Part shown: positions 47,660 through 63,947 of the stretch, one piece after another | Position numbering within the stretch: position 1 is the first letter of the stretch | Layout: every line of letters begins with the position of its first letter | From: Bacteroidota bacterium | GTDB taxonomy: Bacteria > Bacteroidota > Rhodothermia > Rhodothermales > UBA10348 | Direction of reading: 5' to 3' | Assembly (NCBI GenBank): GCA_029262855.1 | Contig: JAJCYP010000030.1 | Span: 5,111 to 69,110, forward strand | Length of the DNA stretch: 64,000 bases | Notes under the pieces: generated by a model | Databases searched by the model: none | The model's input: the letters and a program-made list of their open reading frames with translations, nothing else | Told to the model about the DNA's origin: nothing | Program-made: the position numbers and the translations under genes

Positions 47660-50422
47660 CTACTTGACCAGGAGCATTGAGCGGGTCAGAACCCCTCGCG
47701 GCGTCGTCAGACGATACAGGTATCGTCCCGTGGCCAGTCCGCGTCCGTCGAAACGCACTCGGTGGATTCCGGAAGGCAAAACGCCGTCGTGCAGGACCCC
47801 GACACGCCGACCGGTCAGGTCGAAAACTTCCAGAAGTGCATGAGTCTCCGATGCCAGGGTGAAAGCGATCGTCGTGACCGGATTGAAGGGGTTCGGGTAG
47901 TTCTGCGTCAACTCGGGTCCGCCATCGACGGGCGTGTCCTGGACCGTCTCGACCGAGCGGCGCGGGCTCCGGGTTTCGAATCCGCCCTTGGCGGTGAAGC
48001 CCAGGTCCGGAAGCGGAGCGGACAGGAAAGAGTCCGAGAAGCGAGAAACGTATACCGCGTACTCGCTCCTTGTGACTCTGTCGTCAGGCTCATACAGCGG
48101 GCCCTGAGGCGAGTCCGCTGCTTCCATAATGCCGAGGTCAAGCGCCAGCTGAACATAGCCGCGAAGCTCGGGCGCAATGGCCGACCAGTCGGCCAGTTCC
48201 AGATTGCCGTCGTAGACAGGGCGCTCTCCGTGAGACCGGGCCGCCTCCTGGAGGGCCAGGCTCTGCACAAATGAGTAGGCCAGCCTTTCCCGCGTGACCT
48301 TACGCTTGGGTTGGAAAGCACCCTCCCGAAGTCGCATCACCCCGTCCAGAAGCCCGTCGGTGTCCATCAGAGCGGCCCCGGTTGATAGCACAGCAGCGGC
48401 AAAGGGCGCTTCGGACTCCTTCAGGTCCTCGGGTCCACCCTCGTCCAGCGCCTTGCGTATCCCCGCTCCCATAACGAGGTATTCGGCAATCTCAATGCGC
48501 CTGAGACGATCCTCCGGGCGAAAGCGTCGGGCACGATCTCCATCCACCAGGCGACGCGAAACGGCGTAGGCAATGACAGATTCATCGGGATGGCCGGAAA
48601 TGTCACCAAGGCCCTCGAGGTCAGTGGCCAGGAGGGCAACGTGGCCTCGAACCTGTCCGGGAACGCCAATCCCGTTCGTGAGGCCGAAGGCGTCCAGGCG
48701 AAGGCCTGCCCAGGCTCCAACTCCTCGCACCTCCAGCGTCCATTCTCCGGGGACTGCCGGGGCTGTGACGGTGACACCCGCCTGATATGCCGGGATCGAA
48801 ACGCCTGACTCGTATTGCTGGCCAACCGGATTCGTCAGGACGAGAGCGGCCGTGTTTTCCCCGATCGTGGCGGCGGCCGAGACGAGGTCGGTATCCTCAG
48901 CGACCGGAAATACCAGGCGCTGCGATGTACCGGCGGGCGAGAAGGCGAGATCAAACGGAATTGCGGGCTGCGACGGAGCCAGCGTGACGTTGGCGTTGAA
49001 GGACCGCCGGAGATTCACCGTTTCGGCGAGTCCGGCCTGTCCGTCGCGATGCAGGACGGTTTGGACAACCGCCGCGTGAGCGTTGACGTACCCTGCCCCG
49101 GCTTCCCATGCTGCGCCGCCGCTCATGTTCGTCGCCGTGCTCTCAAGGATGTCCTTGACGCGCCGCCAGTCCAACGTTGGATCGGCCTCAAGCATCATCG
49201 CGATGATGCCGGCAACATGCGGGCATGCCATCGAGGTGCCCGTGGCCACGGCATAGTAGGGCACGAACTCAGGGTGGAGCGACCAGTGCATCGATCCGGT
49301 CGAGGCGTTGGCGGAGATCACCGCCGTACCCGGGGCCGTGATTGTCGGACGATCGACCCAGGTGTACACGGTCCCGTCCCGGCCGGTGAACGTGCCGCTC
49401 TCACCAATCCGTCCTCGCGAAGAAAAACTCCCCAATCGCCCCTGATTGTCCCCTGCGGCAACGGTCACCACCCAGGGAGCCTTCTTGTAGTTGCCCGTGA
49501 TCGTGCCGGAAACGGGTCCAGAGTTGCCGGCCGAAAAGACGACGATGATCCCTCGATCGGCCAGCTTCTTCGTCGCGACGTTTGTCGGATGATCAGGCTG
49601 GAAATCAGTACCGGAGTCATCGGATTCCCCAAACGAGTTGGAAACCACCCGAATATTGTATTCGAACTGATGGGTGAGGGCATAATCGAATCCGCCCAGC
49701 GCATCCAGAACGAGTACCACGGCACCGGAACCGTAGCCGATGATGTCGGCTCCCGGGGCTACACCCTCGAATTTTCCGCCTGACGCCGCGCCCGTGCCCC
49801 CCAGAATGCCTGCGACGTGAGTGCCGTGCCCGCCGCCGTGATCTGTGTTCGGGATGCCACCAACGTAGGTTACCGGGAGAAGGGAGCTCACCGCAGCGAG
49901 GTTGGTCTGACCCGCTACGTTTTCCACCACGTTGTCTTTAAGGTCGGGATGTGTCGCGTCAATTCCGGAGTCGTTGACCAGAACGCCGATACCCCGGCCC
50001 GAGTACGGAAGGCCAGCTGCAGTCCTCAAGCCTGCATCGGCGCGCAGTCGGTCCACACCGGTCGCCGCGGTCGGCCCGCGGTTTTCGAGTACCAGACGAT
50101 CGTTCAGCCAAATCGAGCGGACGGAAGAGAGCGCAGCGATCGCTTCAATCTGGCCGGGCGTGGCCAGAAGGCCCGCGATGGGCAAACTGCGAAACCAGAA
50201 CCCGGTGACTCCGATCGCCTGCAATTCGGCTATCTGCCCACTGGAGATGGGTCCTTCGGCTTCGAAGGTGACCACCACCTCGAGCTGCTCCAGGGGCGCC
50301 GCGGATGCCAGCGCCTCTTGAAGGGTAGGTCCGAGCGTCTGAGCCGACGCCGGCGAGGCAATCGGCAGAAGGACCACTGTCAGTGCAGCGAGGACGGAAA
50401 ACCGGCGGGCGGATAGGCTCAC
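47660..50422 (-). CDS. secreted S8 serine peptidase with SLH-like repeats and T9SS C-terminal sorting domain (paralog 3)
   Basis: LVNDSGIDATHPDL, GGHGTHVAG and TGTSMACPHVAG. C-terminal NYPNPFNPVTTIAF...VFDLTGRRV...GRYLYRL...LLVK. A GTG at 50422 gives the signal peptide (M)SLSARRFSVLAALTVVLLPIASPASA. The ORF-track extension to 51136 is rejected. Confidence 0.85.
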   Translation of the reverse strand: MSLSARRFSVLAALTVVLLPIASPASAQTLGPTLQEALASAAPLEQLEVVVTFEAEGPISSGQIAELQAIGVTGFWFRSLPIAGLLATPGQIEAIAALSSVRSIWLNDRLVLENRGPTAATGVDRLRADAGLRTAAGLPYSGRGIGVLVNDSGIDATHPDLKDNVVENVAGQTNLAAVSSLLPVTYVGGIPNTDHGGGHGTHVAGILGGTGAASGGKFEGVAPGADIIGYGSGAVVLVLDALGGFDYALTHQFEYNIRVVSNSFGESDDSGTDFQPDHPTNVATKKLADRGIIVVFSAGNSGPVSGTITGNYKKAPWVVTVAAGDNQGRLGSFSSRGRIGESGTFTGRDGTVYTWVDRPTITAPGTAVISANASTGSMHWSLHPEFVPYYAVATGTSMACPHVAGIIAMMLEADPTLDWRRVKDILESTATNMSGGAAWEAGAGYVNAHAAVVQTVLHRDGQAGLAETVNLRRSFNANVTLAPSQPAIPFDLAFSPAGTSQRLVFPVAEDTDLVSAAATIGENTAALVLTNPVGQQYESGVSIPAYQAGVTVTAPAVPGEWTLEVRGVGAWAGLRLDAFGLTNGIGVPGQVRGHVALLATDLEGLGDISGHPDESVIAYAVSRRLVDGDRARRFRPEDRLRRIEIAEYLVMGAGIRKALDEGGPEDLKESEAPFAAAVLSTGAALMDTDGLLDGVMRLREGAFQPKRKVTRERLAYSFVQSLALQEAARSHGERPVYDGNLELADWSAIAPELRGYVQLALDLGIMEAADSPQGPLYEPDDRVTRSEYAVYVSRFSDSFLSAPLPDLGFTAKGGFETRSPRRSVETVQDTPVDGGPELTQNYPNPFNPVTTIAFTLASETHALLEVFDLTGRRVGVLHDGVLPSGIHRVRFDGRGLATGRYLYRLTTPRGVLTRSMLLVK

Positions 50423-50554
50423 TGTGCGCAGGGTGGCTGGGTCCTGGAATACAGCAGAGAAAATGGAAATCAATCGCCCGTTCTGCAGTCGGCACAGGAC
50501 GCAATGGAGCGTAAGAAGGTGGACCTCGAGGCCGTAGGCGGGACGGTATTCGTT

Positions 50555-50572
50555 TGTAGGAAAAGTCCTACA
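50555..50572. promoter_or_regulatory. 18-bp perfect palindrome TGTAGGA-AAAG-TCCTACA (operator candidate)
   Basis: Perfect 7-bp inverted repeat with a 4-nt spacer, in the divergent region between S8 paralog 3 and the Asp-box propeller gene. 16/18 identical to 47616-47633. Confidence 0.45.
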
Positions 50573-50579
50573 GCGATCC

Positions 50580-50597
50580 TGTGACATATTTGTGACC
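50580..50597. promoter_or_regulatory. direct repeat TGTGACA-TATT-TGTGACC (11-bp period), same half-site as 36953-36970 on the opposite strand
   Basis: Its reverse complement, GGTCACA-AATA-TGTCACA, matches TGTCACA-GAAC-TGTCACA at 36953. It sits 7 nt from the palindrome. CATATTTG (50585-50592) resembles a -7 element. Confidence 0.4.
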
Positions 50598-50674
50598 ATT
50601 GCACCTGTACATTCCTGAATGCGGCACCGGTCGGTGGCCGCGCTACCCCCTTGGCACAAACCCCATTTAAGACA

Positions 50675-53600
50675 ATGAGGACCCACACACTCCTCCGTGC
50701 GGCAGGCCTGGCCCTGTGCAGCGTACTGGTTTTGATCCCGACTGCTGACGCGCAAAAGCTGGATCTCGACAAGCTGAAGGCCATGCAGGCGCGGGCGATT
50801 GGCCCGGCCGGTATGAGTGGCCGCGTCACGGCCATCGATGTAGTCCTGAGAGACCCCGCGGTGATCTACGCCGGCACCGCCTCGGGCGGACTGTGGCGAT
50901 CCACGAATGCAGGGATCAGCTGGGAGCCCGTCTTCGACGACCAGCCGGTGCACTCCATTGGAGCCGTGGCCGTAAACCAGAGCAATCCGGACGTGATCTG
51001 GGTCGCAACAGGAGAGGGCAACCCTCGCAACAGCGCCAACGCTGGAAACGGCATCTACAAGTCGATCGATGGCGGGCGAAGCTGGCGGCACCTTGGCCTC
51101 GAGAACAGCCGGACGATTCACAGGCTCATCCTGCATCCCACCAATCCGGACGTGGCCTACGCGGGTGTTCAGGGCCCCCCGTGGGGCGAGGGAGAGGAAC
51201 GCGGCGTCTACAAGACTACCGACGGTGGCGAGACCTGGGTCCGGATTCTGTATGCCAACGTGAAGACCGGAATTGCTGATCTGGTCATGGATCCCGTGAA
51301 TCCCGACAAGCTCATCGCCGCAATGTGGGAATTCCGCCGGTGGCCCTACTTCATGAAGTCGGGTGGCGAAGGATCCGGGATCTGGGTCACGTATGATGGT
51401 GGAGAAAACTGGACCCAGCGCACCAGCGAAGACGGGCTGCCAGAGGGCGAACTCGGTCGGATCGGCCTGTCGATCGCGCCGAGCGATCCATCGATCGTCT
51501 ATGCCATTGTCGAAGCGAAGGAAAATGTGTGGCTACGGTCCACCGACGGTGGCTTTTCGTTCGAAGAGGTCAACAAGGGACAGCCGGTCACCAATCGCCC
51601 GTTCTACTACAACGACATCTTCGTCGACCCAGTAAACGAGAATCGGGTCTACTGGCTCTCGTCCAGTGTCCGAGTCACCAATGACGGGGGACGGACCTTC
51701 GAGCCCATCCCGCCACAGGGTACCCCGGGTGGCGGTATCCATCCGGACCACCACGCATTCTGGGTTCATCCGGATGATGCGGATTACCTCATCGAAGGGA
51801 ACGACGGTGGCCTCAACATCTCCCGTGATCGTGGCAAGACCTGGCGCTTCGCGGAAAACCTCCCGCTGGCCCAGTTCTACCACATCAACGTGGACAACAG
51901 CATTCCCTACAACGTGATGGGAGGGCTGCAGGACAACGGCTCCTGGATCGGCCCTGCCTACCTCTGGAGAGCCGGTGGAATCCGGAATTCGGACTGGAAG
52001 GAGGTAGGATTTGGAGACGGTTTCGATGTCACGGTGATGCCGGACAACGAACGATTCATGTACTCGATGAGTCAGGGCGGCAGTCTGCGTCGATTTGACT
52101 CGGAGACCGGGACCGGCGTCAGCATCCGACCGATCCATCCGGATGGTGAGTTCCTCCGGTTTAATTGGAATGCGGCCTTTGCCCAAAGTCCCCAGAATGC
52201 TGCTACGATCTACTATGGCAGCCAGTACCTACACAAGTCCACCGATCGTGGTAACAACTGGACGATCATCTCGCCGGATCTGACAACGAACGATCCGGAG
52301 AAGCAAAAACAGATCGACTCGGGAGGACTCAACTATGATGTCACCGGTGCCGAGAACTACACCACCATCGTCTCGATTGCCCCGAGTCCACTCGACGGGA
52401 ACGTGATCTGGGCCGGGTCGGATGACGGGAACGTCCAGGTGACGCGTGATGGGGGAGCAACTTGGACCAATACGGTCGGCGGAATGCGCGGGCTCGCCAA
52501 GGGCGGTTGGGTCACCCAGATCAAGGCGTCCACCTACAATGCCGGCGAGGCGTTCGTGGTGATTGAGGATCATCGCCGCAACAACTGGGAGACGTACCTC
52601 TACCACACCCGCGATTACGGTTCCACGTGGTCCCGGATGGCGGAGGACGCCTGGGGCTATGCCCTCTCGTTCGTACAGGACCCTGTTCAACCCCGTCTCA
52701 TGTTCCTCGGAACGGAGTTCGGCGTATGGGTCTCCGTGGACGCTGGAGCGAACTGGACCCAGTGGACGAATGGCATGCCGACCATGTCCGCCATGGATAT
52801 GGTCATACATCCCCGCGAACATGACCTCGTGGTCGGGACGTTTGGTAGAGCGATTTACGTTCTCGATGACATTCGGCCACTGAGGGCGATCGCCACGGAA
52901 GGTGCGGAGATCCTGGATGCTCGCCTGAAGGCAATCGCGGCCCCGGATGCTTATCTCGCCCAATGGGGACAGGCAGCGGGGACCCGGTTCTCGGCCAGTG
53001 CCATGTTTGAAGGGGAGAACCGTGATCGCGGAGGCATGATCTCCTACATCGTCAATCGTCCCGAGCGGTCGGGTGACGGTGAGCGGGCAGGAGGCGAGGC
53101 AGATGCCGAACGGCCGGCGGCCATGCGGGCGCGCCGAGCGGCGGCAGGAGGCCCAGGACGGGCTGGACGCGCAGGCGGCGCTCGGAATCGGGTCAAGATC
53201 GAGATTGTAAACGGCGATGGCGAGGTGATCCGGACGGCGAACGGACCCGCCGAGCCCGGACTGAATCGCTACTTCTGGCGGCTTCGCCAGAAGGGGTTCA
53301 GTCAGCCCGGAGGCGGGTTCCGTGGCGGCGGTCGATTCGGTGGTGGCGGTGGCGCCGACCAGGAACCGGCCGGACCCGACGTGCTGCCGGGCACCTACAA
53401 GGTGAGGCTGACGATGGGTCAGGCGAGCGACTCGACCAGCATCACCGTGCATCCGGACCCGAGGCAGGACTACAACCGCGCCGGCGCTGAGGCCCGGGTC
53501 GCGCTGTACCAGAGCATGGAGGGACTGTTCACCGCCGCAACTGACGCCCTCAAGCAGCTGACCGATGCCGGCGAGGCCCACGACTGGATTGGCGATAAGC

Positions 53601-53959
53601 TGTCGGCGATGGACGAGGAGGACCGCGGAGATCTGATGGAAGAGCACCGTGCGGTCAAGGACTCCCTGGACGCCGTGAGGGCCGTGATCTTTGGCGAGCA
53701 GGGAGCACAGGGCATCAGGCGTGATCCGACTACCGTCTCTTCCAGGATGCGAACCGCACTCGGATACATCAGCCGGAGCACGGACATGCCCGGAGCCACC
53801 GAGGATGCGGCCATGGCCCAGAGTCGCGCCGCGATCTCCGAGCTCGTCGAGTTGGTGAACGGTTTCATTGGCGGCCGATGGGCAGAGTATGTCCAGACCA
53901 TCGAGGGCGCCAATCTTTCGTTGTTCACCCCCATGGAGCCCGTTCGCTTGAACAACTGA
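50675..53959 (+). CDS. Asp-box (BNR) repeat, VPS10/sortilin-like beta-propeller protein (paralog A)
   Basis: Signal peptide MRTHTLLRAAGLALCSVLVLIPTADA at ATG 50675. About 11 Asp-box-like motifs (SIDGGRSW, TTDGGETW, TYDGGENW, SRDRGKTW, TRDGGATW...). Confidence 0.8.
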   Translation: MRTHTLLRAAGLALCSVLVLIPTADAQKLDLDKLKAMQARAIGPAGMSGRVTAIDVVLRDPAVIYAGTASGGLWRSTNAGISWEPVFDDQPVHSIGAVAVNQSNPDVIWVATGEGNPRNSANAGNGIYKSIDGGRSWRHLGLENSRTIHRLILHPTNPDVAYAGVQGPPWGEGEERGVYKTTDGGETWVRILYANVKTGIADLVMDPVNPDKLIAAMWEFRRWPYFMKSGGEGSGIWVTYDGGENWTQRTSEDGLPEGELGRIGLSIAPSDPSIVYAIVEAKENVWLRSTDGGFSFEEVNKGQPVTNRPFYYNDIFVDPVNENRVYWLSSSVRVTNDGGRTFEPIPPQGTPGGGIHPDHHAFWVHPDDADYLIEGNDGGLNISRDRGKTWRFAENLPLAQFYHINVDNSIPYNVMGGLQDNGSWIGPAYLWRAGGIRNSDWKEVGFGDGFDVTVMPDNERFMYSMSQGGSLRRFDSETGTGVSIRPIHPDGEFLRFNWNAAFAQSPQNAATIYYGSQYLHKSTDRGNNWTIISPDLTTNDPEKQKQIDSGGLNYDVTGAENYTTIVSIAPSPLDGNVIWAGSDDGNVQVTRDGGATWTNTVGGMRGLAKGGWVTQIKASTYNAGEAFVVIEDHRRNNWETYLYHTRDYGSTWSRMAEDAWGYALSFVQDPVQPRLMFLGTEFGVWVSVDAGANWTQWTNGMPTMSAMDMVIHPREHDLVVGTFGRAIYVLDDIRPLRAIATEGAEILDARLKAIAAPDAYLAQWGQAAGTRFSASAMFEGENRDRGGMISYIVNRPERSGDGERAGGEADAERPAAMRARRAAAGGPGRAGRAGGARNRVKIEIVNGDGEVIRTANGPAEPGLNRYFWRLRQKGFSQPGGGFRGGGRFGGGGGADQEPAGPDVLPGTYKVRLTMGQASDSTSITVHPDPRQDYNRAGAEARVALYQSMEGLFTAATDALKQLTDAGEAHDWIGDKLSAMDEEDRGDLMEEHRAVKDSLDAVRAVIFGEQGAQGIRRDPTTVSSRMRTALGYISRSTDMPGATEDAAMAQSRAAISELVELVNGFIGGRWAEYVQTIEGANLSLFTPMEPVRLNN

Positions 53960-53994: not shown

Positions 53995-54062
53995 ATGCGC
54001 CTTCTATTCCTCGCCGTCACACTTGTCGTTGTCGCACCCGTCATCGCCCAGGAGAAGCCTCC
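53995..54062 (+). other. orphaned signal-peptide-encoding segment, out of frame with the downstream amidohydrolase ORF
   Basis: ATG 53995 encodes MRLLFLAVTLVVVAPVIAQEKP. That frame terminates at TGA 54130-54132, while the amidohydrolase frame is open but start-less over the same stretch. Confidence 0.6.
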
Positions 54063-54128
54063 TGGGATGTCTCGGCCCCGTTCGGCCCCACGTCGGAGGT
54101 CTCCTTCACAACGGACGAGGGCACATGG

Positions 54129-57100
54129 ATGAGCCTGGACGTTTCGCCAGACGGGCGCACGATTGTCTTCGACATGATGGGAGACCTCTACACGATACCC
54201 ATCGCTGGTGGAACAGCCACCTCCATCACCACGGGCCCGGCCTGGGACGTGCAGCCCACATTCAGCCCGGACGGCTCCCGCATCGCCTTCACGAGCGATC
54301 GGGCCGGCGGCGACAATATCTGGACGATTGCCGCCGATGGATCCGACGCCCGTCAGGTGACGAAGGAAAAATTCCGGTTGCTCAACGGCCCTGCCTGGAC
54401 GCCGGACGGCGCGTACCTCCTGGCTCGCAAGCACTTCACGTCCTCGCGCTCTCTCGGGGCCGGTGAGGTCTGGATGTATCACGCGTCGGGCGAAGCCTCA
54501 GGCGGGATTCAACTCACCAAGCAGAAGAACAACCAGCAGGATCAGGGCAATGAGATTACACTCAGTCCTGACGGCCGATATGTCTACTTTTCCGAGGATA
54601 TGTCGGGTGGGTCCACGTTCCAGTACAACAAGGATCCCAACGGCATGATCTACGCCATCCGGCGGCTGGATCGGGAGACGGGGCGACTGGAGAACTACAT
54701 CACCGGCGCCGGAGGTTCGGCGCGCGCTACCCCATCGCCCGACGGAAAGACCATCGCCTTTGTGCGCAGGGTGAGGGAGAAGTCCGTCATCTTCCTCTTC
54801 GATACAACCACGGGACGGCAGTGGCCCGTTTTCGACGGGCTGAACCGGGACCAGCAGGAAGCCTGGGCCATCTTCGGCGTCTATCCGAGGATGGACTGGA
54901 CGCCCGATGGATCCAGCCTTGTGTTCTGGGCGGGCGGCAAGATCAATCGCCTGGACGTGGCATCCCGTGCGGTGGCGGACATTCCCTTCGAGGTGCAGAT
55001 CGATCGGACCATCCACGAGGCGCTGCGCGTGCCCGTCACTGTCCATGAGCCCAGCTTCGAGTCCAGGATGATTCGGGATGTGGCCACCGCGCCCGATGGC
55101 AGCATGATGGTGTTCCATTCGGCGGGCTTCCTCTACACCAAGGCGCTGCCGAACGGCGTGCCGAGGCGGCTGACGTCCCAGACCGAGCATTGGGAATACG
55201 ACCCCTCCTTCAGCCCGGACGGAAGAACCCTGGTGTACACCACCTGGAATGACCGGGACTATGCGGCGATCCGACGGATTTCGGTCACCGGAGGCGTCAG
55301 TCAGGTCCTGTCAACGCGTCCAGGGCACTACTATGAGCCCCGATTCTCTCCCGATGGGGCCCAGATTGTCTACCGGCGGGGCGGAGGCAGTTCGCTGACC
55401 GGTCGCCTGCATGGCATGGAGACCGGGATTTATCGCATGCCCGTCGCAGGAGGGCCCGCCACACGTGTGAGCCGATCAGGGTCTGATGCCCGCTTTGGTC
55501 CCCGCGGGAAGCGGGTCTACTTCCTGAGCGGCGGAGGGCTTTCGAAGGAATACCGGTCCGTGGATGTGAACGGGGCCGACGAGCGCACCCACCTGAACCT
55601 CAAATACGCCAACACGGCCGTTCCCAGCCCCGACTTCAAGTGGGTGGCATTCAACGAACTGTTCAATGCCTACGTCGTCCCGTTTCCAATGACCGGGGGA
55701 GCGATCGATCTCAACAAGGACTCGAAAGCGGTGCCCGTCAAGCAGGTTACGCGCGACCTGGGGACGGATCTGCATTGGTCGGCGGACTCGAAAACGCTTC
55801 ACTGGATGGTGGGGCCTGAGTACTACTCGCGCTCGCTGGCGGAGTCGTTTGCCTTTGTTGATGGTGCGCCTGAAGAGCTGCCCGCGATTGACAGCACCGG
55901 CGTGAGCGTCGGGTTGACGCTTCAGTCGGATGCTCCTTCGGGAACGACTGCCATCACCAACGCCCGACTGGTCACCATGAATGGCGATGAGGTCATCGCC
56001 CGCGGAACGATCCTGGTGAGCGGCAATCGAATTGCCGCGATTGGCGTCGATGTGGAAATCCCGGCAGGGGCAACGGTTATCGATGCGGCTGGGAAGACGG
56101 TCATGCCGGGGTTTGTGGATGCCCATGCGCATCTCAATCACTTCTTTACCGGCCCCATCCCGCAGGAATCCTGGGTGTACTCGGCCAATCTGGGCTTCGG
56201 CGTGACAACCACCCACGACCCGTCGGCAAACACGGAGACGGTCTTCACGCTTTCGGAGATGGTGAAGGCCGGCCGGATCATGGGTCCGCGGATCTACTCG
56301 ACCGGTACGATCCTCTACGGGGCCGACGGCGACTTCAAGGCCGAGGTCAACTCGCTGGACGATGCCCGGAGTCACCTCCGCCGGATGAAGGCAGTCGGCG
56401 CGATCAGCGTCAAGAGCTACAACCAGCCGCGACGCGAGCAGCGCCAGCAGATCATGCAGGCCGCGCGGGAGCAGGGCCTGAACGTGGTGCCCGAGGGCGG
56501 CTCGACCTTCAACCACAACATGACCATGATCATCGATGGTCACACGGGGATCGAGCATAGCGTGCCTGTCGCACCGCTGTACCGGGACGTGCTGGAGACC
56601 TGGCGGCACTCGAAGACCGGCTATACACCCACCCTGGTGGTGGTCTATGGCGGGCCCAGCGGTGAACGCTTCTTCTACGAGCGGGACAACGTGTGGGAGA
56701 ACGAGCGACTCCTTCGCTACGTGCCACGGGACAACGTGGATCCGCAGTCCCGGCGCAGGTGGAAGTCAGCCGACGACGAGTACTACCACGACGACGTGGC
56801 CGCGGAGGCCAAGAAACTGGTCGACCAGGGCAACACGGTCCAGATCGGTGCCCACGGACAGATGCAGGGCCTGGCGTTCCATTGGGAGATGCGCATGCTC
56901 ACCCAGGGTGGATTCACGCCGCACGAGGCGCTCCGATCTGCGACGCTCCACGGAGCCCGCTACCTCGGCATGGACGCGGACATCGGCTCGCTCGAGGTGG
57001 GCAAGCTGGCCGACTTGATCGTTGTCGATGGAGACCCGCTGGCCCGAATCGAGGACGCCGAGAACGTGACCCACGTGATGGTGAACGGGCGGATCTGGAA

Positions 57101-57143
57101 CGCGATGGAACTGCCGCGAGGGGCGACGGCTGACAGTTGGTAG
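54129..57143 (+). CDS. TolB-like beta-propeller / amidohydrolase fusion protein (coordinates from the first in-frame start; the true 5' end is probably 53995 via a frame correction)
   Basis: N-terminal PD40/TolB-type repeats (SPDGRTIVF, FSPDGSRIAFTSDR, SPDGKTIAFV, FSPDGRTLVY, FSPDGAQIVY). C-terminal amidohydrolase motifs (PGFVDAHAHL, GHTGIEH). Confidence 0.85.
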   Translation: MSLDVSPDGRTIVFDMMGDLYTIPIAGGTATSITTGPAWDVQPTFSPDGSRIAFTSDRAGGDNIWTIAADGSDARQVTKEKFRLLNGPAWTPDGAYLLARKHFTSSRSLGAGEVWMYHASGEASGGIQLTKQKNNQQDQGNEITLSPDGRYVYFSEDMSGGSTFQYNKDPNGMIYAIRRLDRETGRLENYITGAGGSARATPSPDGKTIAFVRRVREKSVIFLFDTTTGRQWPVFDGLNRDQQEAWAIFGVYPRMDWTPDGSSLVFWAGGKINRLDVASRAVADIPFEVQIDRTIHEALRVPVTVHEPSFESRMIRDVATAPDGSMMVFHSAGFLYTKALPNGVPRRLTSQTEHWEYDPSFSPDGRTLVYTTWNDRDYAAIRRISVTGGVSQVLSTRPGHYYEPRFSPDGAQIVYRRGGGSSLTGRLHGMETGIYRMPVAGGPATRVSRSGSDARFGPRGKRVYFLSGGGLSKEYRSVDVNGADERTHLNLKYANTAVPSPDFKWVAFNELFNAYVVPFPMTGGAIDLNKDSKAVPVKQVTRDLGTDLHWSADSKTLHWMVGPEYYSRSLAESFAFVDGAPEELPAIDSTGVSVGLTLQSDAPSGTTAITNARLVTMNGDEVIARGTILVSGNRIAAIGVDVEIPAGATVIDAAGKTVMPGFVDAHAHLNHFFTGPIPQESWVYSANLGFGVTTTHDPSANTETVFTLSEMVKAGRIMGPRIYSTGTILYGADGDFKAEVNSLDDARSHLRRMKAVGAISVKSYNQPRREQRQQIMQAAREQGLNVVPEGGSTFNHNMTMIIDGHTGIEHSVPVAPLYRDVLETWRHSKTGYTPTLVVVYGGPSGERFFYERDNVWENERLLRYVPRDNVDPQSRRRWKSADDEYYHDDVAAEAKKLVDQGNTVQIGAHGQMQGLAFHWEMRMLTQGGFTPHEALRSATLHGARYLGMDADIGSLEVGKLADLIVVDGDPLARIEDAENVTHVMVNGRIWNAMELPRGATADSW

Positions 57144-58840
57144 TGGTGGAGTCCTGGGTTTTTGGTGTGGTCGGATCTGAATCGCTTGTTGCGAGGGGTC
57201 GCGCTCTGGCTGAACGTTGCCCTGGAAGCCGCAGCCGTACATCCAGGACCGCCCTTCTTGTTGCCTCTCCTGCGGGCCCGACGTCTCTGTTTTCGGTTCG
57301 GGCTCATGGCGCGACGGCTCTCAGCGGATCAGTTTTCGTGAGTCGGTCCAACGGTGGGCAGTTCTTGCTGGACGAGCATCATCTCGCCGGACAGTGGGAG
57401 CACCGGCTGTCCTCTCTCAAGCTCGGGCAGTTTGCTGCTGCTTGCCTGAATGACTCGACAATCGAGTTGTACACCGACCCGAACGGCCTGAGGAGTTTCT
57501 TCGTTCATGAGTCCGACGCGGGAGCGATTTTCTCGACCCACCTCCACCTCATCACCTCTCTGACCGGGGTCCTCGACTTGGACCTCAGTCAGTTTGGCTC
57601 TCATTGGTTCAGTCACAACCAGATGAACAAGGGCAGCCTTGTAAGGGGTGTTGGCCGGATATGTGCGGGCGATGCCATGGAGCTCCGGGCGAGTCCTTGC
57701 GGCGCCTCAGTCATTCGCCGACCTCGTCCCGTTGGTCGGGATTGTCCGGACTCACCCTTGGCCTGGGTTGGCGAGCTATTGAACAATATCGACCTCCCTA
57801 TAGCCCTTTCTCTATCTGGAGGCCTCGATTCGCGCGTCCTACTCGGTCTGGCTCAGTCGGCAGGTATTCGGCCAAGGCCGTTTGTGTTCGGAGATGAGCG
57901 CAGCCCTGATGTCCAGATTGCACAAATGGCGGCCGCTGCCTGTGGCCTGGAGTGCCTTCATGTCCCTTCGCGCTCGCTGGACGACTGTGTCTTGGGAGGA
58001 GATCTCGAGCGGTATGCCCGCGACAACTGGTGCGCCACCCCTCTCTCGGCAGCCGGGCACCTTACTTCCTACGACAGGGTATTCGAATCCAGTCCTGGCG
58101 CCATTCTGATCGATGGCGGGTTCGGTGAAATCGGCCGTGGGCAGTTCTATCGGAGGGTTGAGGTCTTGAGGAAGCTGCGAAGGCTTCACCGAGGCCCGTT
58201 GGGGGCCGTCATGAGCGCTGTATCATTCAAGCGTGTCAACGTTTTCCGAACTGAGGCACTCGCGATGATGACGCGTGGCGTCGAATCGGCAGCGTCGGAG
58301 TTTCGTGACCAGCTTGTTGCGGCTCGTAGTTCGAGACCGGAGGACACAGTCGCTGCCAGGATTCGACGACAGAATTTCTTCGGACTGACCCAGGGCTGGA
58401 TGGACTCTCAGGGACCGTCGCTGATGCCCTTCGCGCAGGAGGCATTCGTCCGCTCGGTCCTCAAGATTCCCAGCCGCGAGCGAGTAGGAGGCCGCCTCTT
58501 CCGGAGACTTCTCAAGGCGGAGGCACGACAGCTGACGAGGCTACCACTCGCCAAGGGTCGCCACGCCCTTCCGTTTAGACTTCCATCACCCTTGTATCCG
58601 TTGCACTTTCGACTCGCCGCAGGCGCACCCGGTGCGCCCTCCGCGTTCGGTGGCGCCGCGACCCGGCAATTGCTGTACGACTCTCTGAATTCCCTGCACT
58701 CGCGGGAGTGGGTCGCCCTGGACCACGCGAGGGCGGAGCAGTTGCTGGACTCCTTCTATGCTGGCCAAAGACACTTGGAAAGCGAGGTGTCGTGGTTGGG
58801 AGCCGTGCTCTTGTGGCGGATGTCCAACTCCATCAACTGA
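57137..58840 (+). CDS. asparagine synthetase B-like protein (PP-loop ATP pyrophosphatase) lacking the N-terminal Cys nucleophile
   Basis: PP-loop LSLSGGLDSRVLLG and an AsnB-like N-domain remnant YTDPNGLRSFF. There is no Cys after any candidate start (TTG 57137; GTG 57143, 57146, 57167). It overlaps the amidohydrolase stop by 7 nt. Confidence 0.7.
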   Translation: MVVVESWVFGVVGSESLVARGRALAERCPGSRSRTSRTALLVASPAGPTSLFSVRAHGATALSGSVFVSRSNGGQFLLDEHHLAGQWEHRLSSLKLGQFAAACLNDSTIELYTDPNGLRSFFVHESDAGAIFSTHLHLITSLTGVLDLDLSQFGSHWFSHNQMNKGSLVRGVGRICAGDAMELRASPCGASVIRRPRPVGRDCPDSPLAWVGELLNNIDLPIALSLSGGLDSRVLLGLAQSAGIRPRPFVFGDERSPDVQIAQMAAAACGLECLHVPSRSLDDCVLGGDLERYARDNWCATPLSAAGHLTSYDRVFESSPGAILIDGGFGEIGRGQFYRRVEVLRKLRRLHRGPLGAVMSAVSFKRVNVFRTEALAMMTRGVESAASEFRDQLVAARSSRPEDTVAARIRRQNFFGLTQGWMDSQGPSLMPFAQEAFVRSVLKIPSRERVGGRLFRRLLKAEARQLTRLPLAKGRHALPFRLPSPLYPLHFRLAAGAPGAPSAFGGAATRQLLYDSLNSLHSREWVALDHARAEQLLDSFYAGQRHLESEVSWLGAVLLWRMSNSIN

Positions 58841-58861
58841 GAAGGGCTCCGGCCTCCACGC

Positions 58862-59770
58862 ATGGACTACCAGGGAATACTCAGGGAGATCGCCCACGAA
58901 ATCCAGCCGCTTCTGGGGCAGGGAGCGGTCGCGGACTATATCCCGCCGCTGGCCACGGAAGACCCCAACCGGTTTGGTATGGCGGTGCGTCTGCTCGACG
59001 GTTCCGAGTTCGTCGCAGGAGAGGCCGACCACCCGTTCTCTATCCAGAGCGTCTCCAAAGTGTTTCGGCTGGCGCTGGCCATGGATATCCACGGAGACGG
59101 CATCTGGCGCCGCGTAGGTCGTGAGGCTTCGGGCACCGCCTTCAATTCACTGGTTCAATTGGAGACGGAACGGGGAATTCCGAGAAATCCGATGATCAGC
59201 GCGGGTGCGCTGGTGACGATGGATGCGATCTTGCAGCCCGGCGGTCAACGTGATCCCGGCATCGCCTTCATCCAGCGATGCCTTGATGGTCAGCCGGTAG
59301 CCTACGACGACGGAGTTGCCGACGCCGAGTTGGCCACCACACACCGGAATCGTGCGCTAGCTCATCTACTGAAGTCATTCGGCAATCTTAATAACGACCC
59401 CGAGGACGTCATCGCCGCCCATACCCGCGAGTCCGCTGTGACGCTGAGTTGTCGGGACCTGTGTCGTGCCGGGGCCTTTCTCGTTACGGGTGGCCTCACG
59501 CCCGCGGGAAGCCGTGTGACCGAGGCCCGTCAGGCAAAGCGAATCAACGCAATCATGCTGACTTCCGGCGTCTACGACGAGGCCGGCGACTATGCCTACC
59601 GGGTAGGGCTACCCGCCAAGAGTGGGGTAGGCGGGGGTGTACTCGCCGTCATGCCTGGTCAGTTTACGGTTTGCGTCTGGTCTCCGGGGCTGAACCCAAA
59701 GGGAAACTCGCTGGCAGGTACTATGGCGCTGGAGCTTTTCACGACGATGACCGGGGTTTCCGTGTTTTAG
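58862..59770 (+). CDS. glsA: glutaminase A
   Basis: VADYIPPLA, FSIQSVSKVF, NPMISAGA and GLPAKSGVGGG. Confidence 0.92.
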   Translation: MDYQGILREIAHEIQPLLGQGAVADYIPPLATEDPNRFGMAVRLLDGSEFVAGEADHPFSIQSVSKVFRLALAMDIHGDGIWRRVGREASGTAFNSLVQLETERGIPRNPMISAGALVTMDAILQPGGQRDPGIAFIQRCLDGQPVAYDDGVADAELATTHRNRALAHLLKSFGNLNNDPEDVIAAHTRESAVTLSCRDLCRAGAFLVTGGLTPAGSRVTEARQAKRINAIMLTSGVYDEAGDYAYRVGLPAKSGVGGGVLAVMPGQFTVCVWSPGLNPKGNSLAGTMALELFTTMTGVSVF

Positions 59771-59927: not shown

Positions 59928-62900
59928 ATGAGACGCTTTCTCCTGACCGGTGCGACCACCCTGCTGGTCGCATTTCTCGCCGTTGATGCCTCGGCCCAGA
60001 TCGACCCCATTCTTTACGAGGGCCTCGAATATCGCGAAGTAGGCCCATTCCGGGGCGGCCGTGCCTCCGCCGTTACCGGCGCGCCCGGCCATCCTGACCT
60101 GTACTACATGGGAGCAACCGGTGGTGGCGTCTGGCGAACCACCGACTCGGGCAACAGCTGGGAGAACATTTCTGACGGCTTCTTTGGAAGCTCGATCGGA
60201 GCCATCGCAGTCAGCGACTGGGATCCGAACGTCATATACGTAGGCGGCGGAGAGGAGACAGTTCGCGGAAATGTGTCCTACGGCACCGGCATGTGGAAGT
60301 CTGTTGATGCCGGAAAGACCTGGTCAAGCATGGGTCTTGTGGACTCCGAGCGCATCACGCACATCGAAATCCACCCCCGGAATCCTGATCTCGTTTACGC
60401 AGCTGTGCTCGGCCACCTGCACGGGCCTCACGAAACTCGCGGTGTCTATCGTTCCAGGGACGGCGGCGAAAACTGGAAGCGCGTCCTGTTCGTCAACGAC
60501 ATGTCCGGCGCAGTCGACCTCAGGATGGATCCCTCCAATCCGAGGGTTCTGTATGCGGCAACCTGGCGAGTAACGCGGACTCCCTACAGTCTGGAGTCGG
60601 GCGGAGAAGGATCACACCTATGGAAATCCACCGACGGCGGCAACAACTGGACCCAGTTGACCGACACCGACACCGGGCTGCCCGGAGGGACGATCGGGAA
60701 GATTGGAGTCGCCGTGTCGCACGCCAACCCAGAGCGGGTCTGGGCCATCATTGAGCACGAAGACGGTGGTGTATTCCGGTCCGAGGACGGCGGCGAGAGC
60801 TGGCGGCAGATCAACAGCGATCGCAGTTTGCGGCAGCGCGCCTGGTACTACACCCACATCTACGCGGACACGCAGGACGAGAACGTGGTGTACGTGATGA
60901 ACGTGGGCTTCCACAAGTCCACGGACGGCGGCGCCACCTATGAGCGGATCCGCACGCCACACGGCGACCATCACGACATGTGGATCAATCCGGATCATCC
61001 GAACCGTTTCATTGTGGCCGATGACGGCGGAGCCCAGGTCACGGTCAACGGCGGCGATACGTTTTCGACCTACATGAACCAGCCGACCGCGCAGTTCTAC
61101 AGGGTGACGACGGACAACAATTTCCCCTATCGCATTCTAGGAGCACAGCAGGACAACTCGACCGTCCGAATCCTGCACACCTCCAGTGGCAGCGAGGATG
61201 ACTGGGAGCCCAGCGCAGGGGGTGAGAGTGGCTGGCTGGCTCCGCACCCGGACAATCCCGACATCGTTTACGGAGGATCATACGGGGGGACGTTTACCCG
61301 CGTGGACCACCAGACGGGCGCCCGTCGCAACGTGAATGTCTGGCCCGACAATCCGATGGGTCACGGCGCCGAGGATTACCGCTTTCGCTTCCAGTGGAAC
61401 TTCCCCATCGTGTTTTCCCGCCACGATTCGGGTACGCTGTACGCGGCGTCACAGCATCTGCACGCGTCGACGGACGAAGGACAGTCCTGGAAGACCATCA
61501 GCCCTGACCTCACGGTTGGCGATCCTTCGACGCTGGGGGCATCGGGTGGTCCCATCACCAAGGATAACACGGCCGTGGAGTACTACGCGACCATCTTTGC
61601 CATCGCGCAGGGCGAGGAAGAAGGCGTGATCTGGGTCGGGTCTGACGACGGACTGATGCACGTCACGCGGGACGGAGGCGAGAACTGGACGGAGATCACC
61701 CCGCCCTCACGCATGTGGCCGGAGTGGATGATGGTCAATGACATCGTCGTGGATCCCTTCAATCCCGGCGGAGCGTATGTCGCAGGAACGCGCTACAAGT
61801 TGGATGACTTCGCGCCCTACCTCTACAAGACCGAGGACTACGGGGCCACCTGGAAGAAGATCGTGACGGGCATCGACGGGAGTCACTTCACGCGGGCCAT
61901 TCAGCCCGACCCAGAGCGCGCAGGACTGGTGTATGCGGGTACCGAGTTCGGGATGTACATCTCGTTCAACGACGGGGCTTCCTGGAGCACCTTCCAGAAT
62001 AATCTCCCGATCGTTCCGATCACGGACCTCGCCTGGCGCGATCACGATCTCATCGTCGCCACGCAGGGACGCTCGTTCTGGATCATGGAGGATCTGATGC
62101 CGCTACACAAGGCGTCTGCGTCCATGGCGGAGTCCAAGTTTGCGCTGATCGGTCCCTACCCAACCCATCGCATGATCGACGGAGGCAACGGGGTGACGCT
62201 GCGGTATTTCCTGAACAATCCCGATGACGACGCCGAGGTCAAGATTCGGGTGCTGGACGGAATGGGAGACATCATCGACTCCTGGTCGTCGAAGGACGAC
62301 GGGAACAGCGCCGTATCGAAGGAACACGGTCTGAATTCGCACTCGTGGAACATGCGCTATCCGCGTGCCGAGGAATTCCCGGGCATGATACTCTGGTCTG
62401 GCGGCGGCATGAACGGCCCCATGGCGGTACCCGGCACGTACTCCGCCAGGCTGATCGTGGGCGAGGACTCGACGGACACTGACTTCACGATTCTTCCGGA
62501 TCCACGAAGCACGGCGACCGATGCCGATCGTCAGGCACAGTTCGACTTCCTCCTCTCGGTCCGCGACAAGCTGACCGAAACCCATCAGGCCATCAAGCGA
62601 ATTCGCGGAGCCCGGGAGCAGATCAATGGCGTTCTGGATCGGGTTCCGAAGGACCATGCGGAACTGGATGCCCTGAAGGAGGCAGCCGAGTCGCTCCTCG
62701 ATCCGATGAAGGCCATCGAGGAGACGCTGTACCAGACCAAGAATCGCAGCGGCCAGGATCCGTTGAACTTCCCCATTCGCCTCAACAACAAGCTGGCATC
62801 GGTAGGAGGTACCGCCGCGGGGGGGGACTACCGCCCCACCGACCAGTCGGTGGCCGTCCGCGACGAATTGGTGACGGCGATTGATGCGGAGCTGGCCAAG

Positions 62901-62987
62901 CTGGGCGTGCTCTTCGGATCGGGACTTGAGCAATTCAATGCGGCTGTTCGTGCGGCGAATATTCCGGCGGTAGTTCTGGACAAGTAG
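59928..62987 (+). CDS. Asp-box (BNR) repeat, VPS10/sortilin-like beta-propeller protein (paralog B)
   Basis: Signal peptide MRRFLLTGATTLLVAFLAVDASA. Asp-box-like motifs TTDSGNSW, SVDAGKTW, SRDGGENW, STDGGNNW, SEDGGESW, STDGGATY, TRDGGENW, TEDYGATW. Confidence 0.8.
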   Translation: MRRFLLTGATTLLVAFLAVDASAQIDPILYEGLEYREVGPFRGGRASAVTGAPGHPDLYYMGATGGGVWRTTDSGNSWENISDGFFGSSIGAIAVSDWDPNVIYVGGGEETVRGNVSYGTGMWKSVDAGKTWSSMGLVDSERITHIEIHPRNPDLVYAAVLGHLHGPHETRGVYRSRDGGENWKRVLFVNDMSGAVDLRMDPSNPRVLYAATWRVTRTPYSLESGGEGSHLWKSTDGGNNWTQLTDTDTGLPGGTIGKIGVAVSHANPERVWAIIEHEDGGVFRSEDGGESWRQINSDRSLRQRAWYYTHIYADTQDENVVYVMNVGFHKSTDGGATYERIRTPHGDHHDMWINPDHPNRFIVADDGGAQVTVNGGDTFSTYMNQPTAQFYRVTTDNNFPYRILGAQQDNSTVRILHTSSGSEDDWEPSAGGESGWLAPHPDNPDIVYGGSYGGTFTRVDHQTGARRNVNVWPDNPMGHGAEDYRFRFQWNFPIVFSRHDSGTLYAASQHLHASTDEGQSWKTISPDLTVGDPSTLGASGGPITKDNTAVEYYATIFAIAQGEEEGVIWVGSDDGLMHVTRDGGENWTEITPPSRMWPEWMMVNDIVVDPFNPGGAYVAGTRYKLDDFAPYLYKTEDYGATWKKIVTGIDGSHFTRAIQPDPERAGLVYAGTEFGMYISFNDGASWSTFQNNLPIVPITDLAWRDHDLIVATQGRSFWIMEDLMPLHKASASMAESKFALIGPYPTHRMIDGGNGVTLRYFLNNPDDDAEVKIRVLDGMGDIIDSWSSKDDGNSAVSKEHGLNSHSWNMRYPRAEEFPGMILWSGGGMNGPMAVPGTYSARLIVGEDSTDTDFTILPDPRSTATDADRQAQFDFLLSVRDKLTETHQAIKRIRGAREQINGVLDRVPKDHAELDALKEAAESLLDPMKAIEETLYQTKNRSGQDPLNFPIRLNNKLASVGGTAAGGDYRPTDQSVAVRDELVTAIDAELAKLGVLFGSGLEQFNAAVRAANIPAVVLDK

Positions 62988-62994
62988 CGCGACG

Positions 62995-63047
62995 CCGGGG
63001 GGCGGGGGCCCGATGCTCCGACCCCCGGGCGGCCCCCCGGCCCCCGG
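62995..63047 (+). terminator. very GC-rich imperfect hairpin built from G5-6 and C5-6 runs after the propeller gene (terminator-like, no U-tail)
   Basis: ccggggggcgggggcc (62995-63010) can pair with ggccccccggcccccgg (63031-63047), with one mismatch and one bulge. It starts 8 nt after the stop codon. Confidence 0.35.
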
Positions 63048-63104
63048 CGGCACGCATTCTGCACAGCGGTCAGGAGACCACTCTCCTCCAGACCGCAATC
63101 TTCG

Positions 63105-63947
63105 TTGAGCGAATCGACAGAAAACGTTGCCAGAGCCGCGCGAACACGGTTTCGTGAGGCGGCGAGTGCCCCTCGTGGCACCGGCGATCTTGAGCCAGGG
63201 AGGGTAATAGGCACCGGGTGCGAGGCAGAGATTGTCGTCGCGTCCAATCCCGCTCGAGTGGTCAAGCGGTTCTTCGATCCCGTCGCGAACCGGGGACGCG
63301 CGGACAGGGAGGCCCGGGCGTTGCGCCTCCTGAATCGAACGTCGCCCGGCCTCTGCGCCGGGGTGCGATTCCCGAGGCTTGAGGACTATCGCCGCGACGC
63401 CGGTGAAATTGAAATGGAACGCGCGCGAGGAGAGACCCTGGCCAAGTCCTTGCTCCACGCGGACGTCCCCGATCGGGCACCGCGTGCCATCGCCAATGGA
63501 CTCGTGCACTACTCGGACGTAGTCGGGGAGGCGTACCATGATTTTGCTCCGGTGAATGTCATCTGGGATGGCGTGCGGCAGGAGGCCTGGTTCATCGACC
63601 TGGCGTCCGAGCATATCGTGGAAGAGCCGACAGACGAAGCCTTGAGGATCTCGCACTCCCTGGGTTACTACCTGGGTGCGGTGGCCTACGAGGCGTCGCG
63701 ACCGGCCGCGGCCGCCCAAATCCGCGGGGCGCGCCGTCAAATTCGATTGATCAGCGCTGTCAGCCGAGAGCTGAGGGCCCTGGGAATTCAGGTTTTCGGG
63801 TCCCACGTGCGAAAGACGGCGTGGGCCCAGTTTCATGATGCCGCCGACTCCGGCGGGATTGCCCGCCGACTCTGGTACTGGACCGCCGGCCGTCTCCTGG
63901 CGCATTTCTGGATCAGGGCGTGCCTGCGCGAAATCGGGCCGGACTGA
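63105..63947 (+). CDS. small protein-kinase-like fold protein (RIO/Bud32/LPS-kinase-like)
   Basis: Gly-rich loop IGTGCEAEIV followed by VVKRF. HxDxxxxN-like YHDFAPVNVIWD and a DFG-like FIDLA. The TTG start is uncertain. Confidence 0.5.
   Translation: MSESTENVARAARTRFREAASAPRGTGDLEPGRVIGTGCEAEIVVASNPARVVKRFFDPVANRGRADREARALRLLNRTSPGLCAGVRFPRLEDYRRDAGEIEMERARGETLAKSLLHADVPDRAPRAIANGLVHYSDVVGEAYHDFAPVNVIWDGVRQEAWFIDLASEHIVEEPTDEALRISHSLGYYLGAVAYEASRPAAAAQIRGARRQIRLISAVSRELRALGIQVFGSHVRKTAWAQFHDAADSGGIARRLWYWTAGRLLAHFWIRACLREIGPD

Follow-up and report, generated by a model that had tools for sequence, protein, structure and literature searches.

An AsnB-like protein with a predicted inactive glutaminase half, encoded next to a glutaminase A gene in a Rhodothermales genome, and the family to which it belongs

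A contig of a Bacteroidota bacterium belonging to the Rhodothermales (JAJCYP010000030.1) carries, within the 64-kb stretch analyzed here and hereafter called the window, a gene for a protein resembling the asparagine synthetase AsnB, followed by glsA, the gene of a stand-alone glutaminase A. An earlier note, made from the sequence alone, had remarked that the AsnB-like protein has an ATP-pyrophosphatase loop (PP-loop) and a degenerate N-terminal domain that should be unable to hydrolyze glutamine, and had offered two explanations: a split amidotransferase in which GlsA supplies the ammonia, or an amidoligase or cyclase role like that of other AsnB homologs devoid of the nucleophile. This raises the question of what such a protein does and whether the adjacent glutaminase is its partner. 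On balance, we consider it probable that the gene encodes a functional member of the AsnB superfamily with a dead glutaminase half, working as an amide synthetase that adenylates a carboxylate with ATP, takes its nitrogen from free ammonia or an amine and has no conserved link to glsA.

The open reading frame (ORF) spans 57137..58840 of the forward strand, which gives 567 aa when counted from the first TTG, and contains in the confirmed frame both motifs singled out before, the PP-loop SLSGGLDSR and the segment YTDPNGLRSFF (Table 1). Since an in-frame stop at 57131 rules out any start further upstream, the candidates are limited to TTG 57137, GTG 57143 and GTG 57146. The absence of a Met-Cys start stands, as 57000-57500 contains, in whichever frame, no ATG, GTG or TTG with a Cys codon next to it on the 3' side. 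The alignment of the family N-terminal consensus M-S-W-x-F-G with ..V-E-S-W-V-F-G in the window, together with an independent gene call for the same protein (P0024, 565 aa, start at GTG 57143), favors GTG 57143 or GTG 57146 as the probable start. The stop codon of the upstream amidohydrolase gene (TAG 57141-57143) thus abuts or overlaps the start of the AsnB-like gene, and the 7-nt overlap described in the earlier note applies to the TTG start only, the overlap being 1 nt or none with the favored GTG codons. The public NCBI call (P0001, 500 aa) begins at GTG 57338 and drops about 65-67 conserved N-terminal residues, which correspond to conserved strands with high predicted folding confidence in the AlphaFold2 model.

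The N-terminal domain was compared by hhalign with E. coli AsnB, the sequence of which was drawn from NC_000913.3. In this alignment ESWVFG pairs with MCSIFG, placing Ser6 at the position of the AsnB nucleophile Cys1, and T, G and V stand opposite R49, N74 and E76, in a stretch where the alignment confidence is low. The YTDPNGLRSFF segment is the counterpart of AsnB 'RDHLGIIPLY', and the insertion FGSHWFSHNQ has no E. coli counterpart, a 26-residue gap being opened in AsnB. The same picture is obtained for the whole family described below: Ser occupies the Cys1 column in 85% of 161 members and Gly in about 10%, the next residue is a Trp conserved at 91%, and the N-termini of 160 members read MSW in 121 cases and MGW in 14. 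The family alignments contain no conserved equivalents of AsnB R49, N74 or E76; D114 is the first invariant residue, and no invariant polar residue precedes it in either the 20- or the 161-sequence alignment. Because of the Ser or Gly at the Cys1 position and of this lack of an invariant polar residue before D114, the domain is predicted to be dead as a class-II glutaminase across the family and would persist as a structural relic, in agreement with what had been proposed for the window protein. A different possibility is that Ser replaces Cys1 in an active amidotransferase of the N-terminal nucleophile (Ntn) type, after removal of the Met or, in the window protein, after cleavage of a propeptide of 3-5 residues. 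Ser does fall exactly on Cys1, as residue 2 in 120 of the 160 members and followed by the conserved Trp, there are other Ntn hydrolases that rely on Ser or Thr, and Bacillus subtilis PurF carries a propeptide. However, the Gly found at this position in about 10% of members disfavors a Ser nucleophile, and with no conserved R49, N74 or E76 equivalents and nothing polar invariant before D114 we regard an active Ser-type enzyme as extremely unlikely.

The AlphaFold2 model of the window protein, built from the 20-sequence alignment, has a mean pLDDT of 90.5 and a pTM of 0.90. In a Foldseek search of the PDB its full-length matches were confined to the AsnB superfamily, namely TsnB9, CarA, human ASNS, beta-lactam synthetase and E. 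coli AsnB (E 4e-17 to 8e-12, TM 0.46-0.64, identity 11-15%), and the next matches were PurF-type Ntn domains, which the N-terminal domain also matched, and enzymes with the PP-loop domain only. A two-domain AsnB-type fold is therefore predicted with confidence and, together with the invariant SGGxDS PP-loop, places the protein in the AsnB superfamily. A profile search of PDB sequences led again to this superfamily, with confident alignment in the PP-loop region only, where hhalign and the PDB profiles align the protein with ASNS and AsnB at high confidence; likewise, the Pfam PF00733 match (27.6 bits vs a cut-off of 21) covers only the 54 residues around the PP-loop (aa 219-272). Further along the synthetase half the 'SPD' motif is retained and DGGFGE lies opposite the AsnB active-site loop 'SGEGSDE' in an uncertain register, and around AsnB E348, D384, R387 and K449 the hhalign confidence is 0-1, so that no residue-level mapping is claimed there. 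The MPFAQ motif falls inside a strongly basic, helical C-terminal region (aa 331-567, 58127-58840) with a pI of 11.5. Basicity from aa 331 onward is shared by 89% of family members (median pI 9.6), unlike the N-terminal domain of the family (median pI 6.4) and the corresponding C-terminal region of E. coli AsnB (pI 6.0). This hints at a possible anionic partner.

Relatives of the window protein form a coherent family. A word-indexed search returned 23 of them, all of about 560-580 aa, and a profile search at E<=1e-30 yielded at least 561 cluster representatives at 50% identity, of which the best 150 are about 570 aa long and nearly all match end to end. In a collection of species-representative genomes (185,579 species), at least 272 stretches encode a relative, a lower bound obtained from a pattern scan. 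The genome-locus counts given below rest on the best 80 of these 272 stretches, all of them metagenome-assembled genomes (MAGs). Nearly all of the 80 are labelled Rhodothermales, Balneolaceae, Ignavibacteria/Melioribacteraceae, Chlorobiota, Calditrichota, KSB1, Zhuqueibacter or Bacteroidota, the exceptions being three with no taxon label and one labelled Hyphomicrobiales. Family members share 22-42% identity with the window protein and cover 82-99% of its length. Their source annotations read 'hypothetical' or 'asparagine synthase-related', NCBIfam scoring of the window protein and of a 20-member sample found no curated model that covers them, and full-text literature searching turned up nothing on this AsnB-like family. 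It thus appears to be a family within the AsnB (Ntn plus PP-loop) superfamily that is largely confined to the Fibrobacterota-Chlorobiota-Bacteroidota (FCB) group and has no characterized member.

The window protein belongs to this family by its length of about 570 aa, its end-to-end profile match and the presence of all invariant residues. It retains D114, G117, W157, SGGxDSR, D258, DGGxGE, R334, D403, Q419, D423, P431 and W553, and every position that is 98-100% conserved across the 161 members is kept. Among the 58 positions conserved at 85% or more it departs at 11, and most of these departures are common to its nearest relatives, those shared by the subclade including G44, G45, G66, H98Q, R135H and E418T/G; they would thus be a subclade signature and not a sign of decay. 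In a neighbor-joining tree the main family broadly follows taxonomy, and the window protein clusters with the proteins of loci L009 (Rhodothermales, 42% identity) and L010 (a Bacteroidota MAG) and with P0003 and P0004, a group that forms a long branch of its own.

The earlier note had also described the composition of the gene as atypical and had suggested horizontal acquisition or relaxed selection. The G+C counts it gave for three 60-nt lines (34, 32 and 43) were reproduced exactly, and among the 42 ORFs of at least 200 aa in the window the gene has, by a small margin, both the lowest G+C at third codon positions (GC3, 0.665, z -1.8) and the lowest synonymous-codon log-likelihood (z -2.7), but its total G+C is ordinary (0.607 vs a mean of 0.620, z -0.7, rank 8 of 42). 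The glsA gene also lies toward the low end. In 15 other carriers with high-G+C genomes the GC3 of the family gene equals that of its neighbors (mean difference -0.001), which rules out a family-wide low GC3; the deviation in the window is therefore local, and it is modest. We found no tRNA near the gene, no plasmid match by tblastn, no defense-system match with PADLOC and no mobile-element gene in Pfam scans of the surrounding genes. An origin from a mobile element or a defense system was rejected on the absence of plasmid, tRNA and PADLOC matches, and horizontal acquisition more generally is weakly indicated, a modest codon deviation standing against the absence of a tRNA, plasmid match or mobile-element gene nearby. 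Relaxed selection is unlikely judging from the conserved residues, all of which are kept, and from the departures, most of which are subclade-wide. The combined possibility, a recently acquired or decaying gene with no current function, would account for the low GC3 and codon typicality, for the position of the subclade apart from the main Rhodothermales clade and for a frameshift in the upstream gene of the assembly; yet the reading frame is unbroken over its 567 codons, the structure of the protein is predicted with confidence and total G+C is ordinary, which, added to the residue conservation and the absence of mobility markers, makes it very improbable.

The gene 21 nt downstream is a genuine glutaminase A gene, as the earlier note had it: its full-length product scores 328 bits with Pfam PF04960, 408 with NF002133 (cut-off 368) and 356 with TIGR03814 (cut-off 255), and contains the Ser-x-x-Lys motif. 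Because there is no terminator-like site between the amidohydrolase gene, the AsnB-like gene and glsA, co-transcription of the three, inferred from gene layout, is plausible. The split-amidotransferase proposal, in which GlsA would hydrolyze glutamine and pass the ammonia to the AsnB-like synthetase within a two-subunit enzyme, draws on this arrangement (same strand, 21-nt gap, no terminator-like site in between), on the AsnB-like protein having no glutaminase of its own and on a two-subunit precedent, the PP-loop NAD synthetase of Thermus thermophilus, a genuine split system for which PMC3376133 is reported to draw on evolutionary analysis and biochemical characterization. Linkage was examined from the side of both genes. 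A tblastn search with the window GlsA detected no glsA within +-7 kb of the family gene at any of the 80 genome loci, no glutaminase neighbors the homologs at seven metagenome loci (+-8 kb), and no family member lies near the GlsA relatives at 43 metagenome loci, 25 of which are at least 6 kb long; nearly all of these 43 relatives are 47-78% identical to the window GlsA. The loci that lack glsA include those of the closest relatives (42%, 37% and 36% identity). The adjacency is thus lineage-specific, not the mark of a conserved two-component amidotransferase, and a conserved GlsA partnership was rejected. In addition, GlsA belongs to the beta-lactamase/serine-dependent glutaminase class, of which to our knowledge no member is an amidotransferase subunit, and its presence suits the surrounding peptide-catabolism genes. 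We consequently find a GlsA-fed split enzyme very unlikely; the placement of glsA is most likely a local accident within a peptide-catabolism neighborhood.

No other partner emerges from the gene neighborhoods, which were surveyed at the 80 loci by all-against-all clustering of the neighbors and by a Pfam census of first and second neighbors. In 63 of 77 loci the upstream neighbor shares the strand of the family gene, and in about half of these 63 the gap is at most 25 nt, and the downstream neighbor is convergent in 47 of 79, so that the family gene would typically be the last in its operon. A gene for pyruvate phosphate dikinase (PPDK) lies directly upstream in 14 of the 77 loci, all of the main Rhodothermales clade and often with a very short gap (L007, L012, L014, L015, L019, L025, L028, L042, L059, L067, L071, L075, L081 and L083). 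PPDK interconverts AMP plus pyrophosphate (PPi) and ATP, the very compounds that a PP-loop enzyme releases and consumes, respectively, and its proximity may reflect a functional link or mere synteny. A Wzx-type flippase gene is found upstream in seven loci, with glycosyltransferases nearby. In one Ignavibacteria clade (L038, L044, L058, L063, L073, L074 and similar loci) the family gene overlaps the end of the flippase gene and is flanked by glycosyltransferases of the GT1 and GT2 types, a setting that may point, for this clade, to a function in envelope glycans. HD hydrolase genes are upstream in seven loci, in synteny with RecG, and the downstream neighbors include GpsA/PlsY in eight loci and an acyl-CoA dehydrogenase in eight. 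All these associations (PPDK, Wzx with glycosyltransferases, HD hydrolase/RecG, GpsA/PlsY) are clade-level synteny, and a conserved operon partner of any kind was rejected. The closest relatives lie among hypothetical genes (L001/L009), next to MalQ and GlgX (L010) or among three amidohydrolases (L008); linkage to amidohydrolases was also discarded as too sparse, being restricted to the window and L008, with one of the 80 genome loci similar.

One alternative is an ammonia-dependent asparagine synthetase, that is, an AsnB-type enzyme that has lost its glutaminase and makes asparagine from aspartate and NH3: AsnB itself is able to use ammonia, and TIGR01536 (AsnB) is among the best curated matches, being hit by 19 of the 20 sampled members with a best E of 4e-12. 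Nevertheless, the window protein scores 19.4 bits with this model, far below the cut-off of 267.1, and has neither Cys1 nor the conserved Gln-binding and oxyanion residues (R49, N74, E76 and D98 in E. coli), which sets it outside AsnB proper. Moreover, the 22-42% identity and the patchy occurrence (the at least 272 stretches in 185,579 species genomes) are unlike a core biosynthetic enzyme, the gene contexts are unconnected with aspartate or asparagine metabolism and the C-terminal region is basic (pI 9.6 vs 6.0 in AsnB). Asparagine synthesis is thus an unlikely function. An intramolecular lactam-forming cyclase, either of the macrolactam type known from lasso peptides and other ribosomally synthesized and post-translationally modified peptides (RiPPs) or resembling beta-lactam and carbapenam synthetases, can be argued from profile and fold. 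The lasso-type macrolactam cyclase model NF033561 is the top NCBIfam match of the window protein (E 9.8e-6) and matches 19 of the 20 sampled members, the structural matches have CarA and beta-lactam synthetase near the top, and these enzymes, like the lasso cyclases, likewise lack Cys1. With the beta-lactam and carbapenam synthetases a similar fold was observed, the C-terminal alignment is unreliable as regards their catalytic Tyr-Glu-Lys set, and the neighbors examined provide no cluster context. The NF033561 score, however, is 24.4 bits vs a cut-off of 300. No recurrent glutaminase, glutamine amidotransferase (GATase), lasso B protease, RiPP recognition element (RRE) or beta-lactam pathway gene appeared in the neighbor censuses; PF13471, PqqD/RRE and beta-lactam genes are absent from the 25 commonest Pfam families of three censuses and from the window, ABC-transporter domains occur in 3 of 137 second neighbors and a neighbor of the transglutaminase-like BTLCP type in 2 of 79 loci. 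We therefore assign lactam cyclization a low probability, and the wider proposal of the earlier note, an amidoligase- or cyclase-type role for a protein whose N-terminal domain has no glutaminase machinery, remains the best general reading.

As to the amide synthetase that we favor, characterized members of the superfamily suggest how it might work. The PP-loop domain would adenylate a carboxylate of the substrate, converting ATP into an acyl-AMP and PPi. A nitrogen nucleophile, which may be free ammonia or an amine within the substrate, would then attack the activated carboxylate to yield the amide, and the N-terminal domain would persist as a relic of a glutaminase domain with no hydrolysis of glutamine. 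As the glutaminase is predicted to be dead and no partner is conserved, the nitrogen is likely to come from free ammonia or from an amine of the substrate; single-domain PP-loop NAD synthetases offer a precedent for such direct use of free ammonia (PMC3376133). Several observations weigh against this proposal. The adenylation and amide chemistry is carried over from relatives that share no more than 11-15% identity, and the substrate-binding part of the synthetase domain aligns unreliably with AsnB (hhalign confidence 0-1 near D384/R387). The long-branch subclade differs from the main family at conserved positions (H98Q, R135H, E418T/G), and its substrate may therefore differ as well. Finally, the tight spacing in the window, where the amidohydrolase stop abuts the start and glsA follows after 21 nt, would suit a lineage-specific functional link, and at L008 (5408-11151) the gene of the homolog P0003 (36% identity) lies in the midst of three Amidohydro_1 genes and overlaps the upstream one by 4 nt.

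A broader interpretation, which we put forward tentatively as a possibility on the unlikely side, is that the family represents an unrecognized, mostly FCB-restricted group of enzymes that use the AsnB scaffold, with no hydrolysis of glutamine, for amidating or ligating a substrate new to the superfamily, and that in the lineage of the window a new operon with glsA could be an early stage in the recruitment of a glutaminase partner. The basic C-terminal region suggests that the substrate may be an anionic macromolecule or part of the cell envelope, with RNA, acidic glycans and lipids as examples. AsnB homologs devoid of the nucleophile have repeatedly given rise to distinctive chemistry (beta-lactam ring closure, lasso-peptide cyclization, hydroxamate formation), and a coherent, widespread family in Rhodothermales, Ignavibacteria and related phyla with no characterized member therefore makes a sensible starting point in the search for new enzymes. 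The locus also teaches some lessons in annotation: the public gene call is too short by about 65-67 codons, the label 'asparagine synthase' would mislead, and the adjacency of glsA should not be passed on as a functional link.

The other features of the window support the setting proposed for glsA (Table 1). Between 40 and 62 kb we find three S8 subtilases, an oligopeptide transporter of the OPT type, two BNR/sortilin-type proteins, a secreted dipeptidase-like amidohydrolase and GlsA, a gene content that appears to define a neighborhood for proteolysis and peptide uptake and for peptide and amino-acid catabolism, in which a glutaminase therefore fits with no need of an AsnB-like partner. The amidohydrolase gene carries the frameshift mentioned above, its predicted signal-peptide segment being out of frame with the gene body; a cluster mate (P0030, 1049 aa, at least 90% identity) is in a single frame throughout. 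The window gene is split by a 1-nt deletion within 53995-54132, with the junction near 54052-54070, due to an error in the assembly or to a true frameshift. Apart from this neighborhood, a 280-aa ORF (63105-63947, forward strand) that has no Pfam or PADLOC match is overlapped over nearly all its length by a 600-aa ORF on the reverse strand (62103-63905), and a 535-aa ORF (35250-36857, reverse strand) contains a repetitive, G+C-rich (about 70%) segment at 35548-36078 with a weak match to a proline/acidic repeat (PARP-like), probably a low-complexity linker.

Table 1. Features of the AsnB-like gene, its product and the surrounding genes (positions in the window)
Feature	Position	Strand	Remarks
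AsnB-like coding sequence	57143..58840	+	Start ambiguous (TTG 57137, GTG 57143, GTG 57146); stop TGA 58838-58840; 564-567 aa
Degenerate Ntn/class-II-glutaminase-like N-terminal domain (predicted), about aa 6-200	57152..57736	+	hhalign vs E. coli AsnB; Foldseek
YTDPNGLRSFF, aa 112-122	57470..57502	+	Family TDxLGLR; D114, G117 and R119 invariant or nearly so
Family-specific insertion FGSHWFSHNQ	57593..57622	+	Family FGSxWLLxNQ; W157 98%, N161 90%
PP-loop SLSGGLDSR, aa 225-233	57809..57835	+	ATP pyrophosphatase signature SGGxDS; S227-G-G-x-D-S-R233 invariant in the family
DGGFGE motif	58112..58129	+	D326, G327, G330 and E331 at least 98%; R334 follows
MPFAQ motif	58424..58438	+	P431 99%; counterpart of AsnB 'VPFLD'; hhalign confidence 6-9
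glsA, stand-alone glutaminase A, 302 aa	58862..59770	+	S-x-x-K motif (SVSK) at aa 63-66; no signal peptide
PD40/TolB-propeller and metal-dependent amidohydrolase (Xaa-Pro-dipeptidase-like)	54129..57143	+	Pfam PD40, Amidohydro_1/3; NF051886 112 bits
Signal-peptide segment MRLLFLAVTLVVVAPVIAQEKP of the amidohydrolase	53995..54063	+	Out of frame with the gene body; 1 base missing
Three tandem S8 subtilases	42092-44923, 44936-47389, 47660-51136	-	S-layer homology (SLH)-like segments; one with a type IX secretion system (T9SS) Por_Secre_tail
OPT oligopeptide transporter	40245-41939		Pfam
BNR/sortilin-type protein	50651-53959		Pfam

Among known systems, the NAD synthetases, namely the two-subunit enzyme of Thermus and the single-domain, NH3-dependent NadE (PMC3376133), resemble the proposed enzyme in combining a PP-loop synthetase with free ammonia or with a separate glutaminase subunit; the Thermus enzyme differs in the fold family of its synthetase and in its nitrilase-type glutaminase, and the glsA linkage of the window is not conserved. 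The lasso and other macrolactam cyclases (NF033561, NF033535) share the absence of Cys1 and a weak profile likeness over the second half of the N-terminal domain and the PP-loop, but the scores are about 10-fold under the cut-offs and no genes for a B protease, RRE, precursor or exporter accompany the family at 87 loci. Beta-lactam synthetase (1JGT) and CarA (1Q15) are, like the window protein, devoid of the nucleophile with a vestigial N-terminal domain and come near the top of both the structural and the PDB-profile matches, at an identity of 12-15% and in a beta-lactam pathway context that the window family does not have. AsnB and human ASNS (PDB 1CT9 and 6GQ3; TIGR01536, PF00733) have in common with the family an Ntn-like N-terminal domain joined to a PP-loop synthetase domain, the SGGxDS PP-loop, 'SPD', the TDxxGxR segment and an xPFxx motif; at 11-14% identity the family differs from them in lacking Cys1 and conserved Gln-binding residues, and in its FGSxWLLxNQ insertion, basic C-terminal region and genomic contexts. 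The hydroxyamidotransferase TsnB9 of trichostatin biosynthesis (7YLZ) presumably differs in keeping its Cys nucleophile and acting in a polyketide cluster, and it shares only 14-15% identity with the window protein; it is nonetheless of similar length and provides the best structural match (E 4e-17, TM 0.63).

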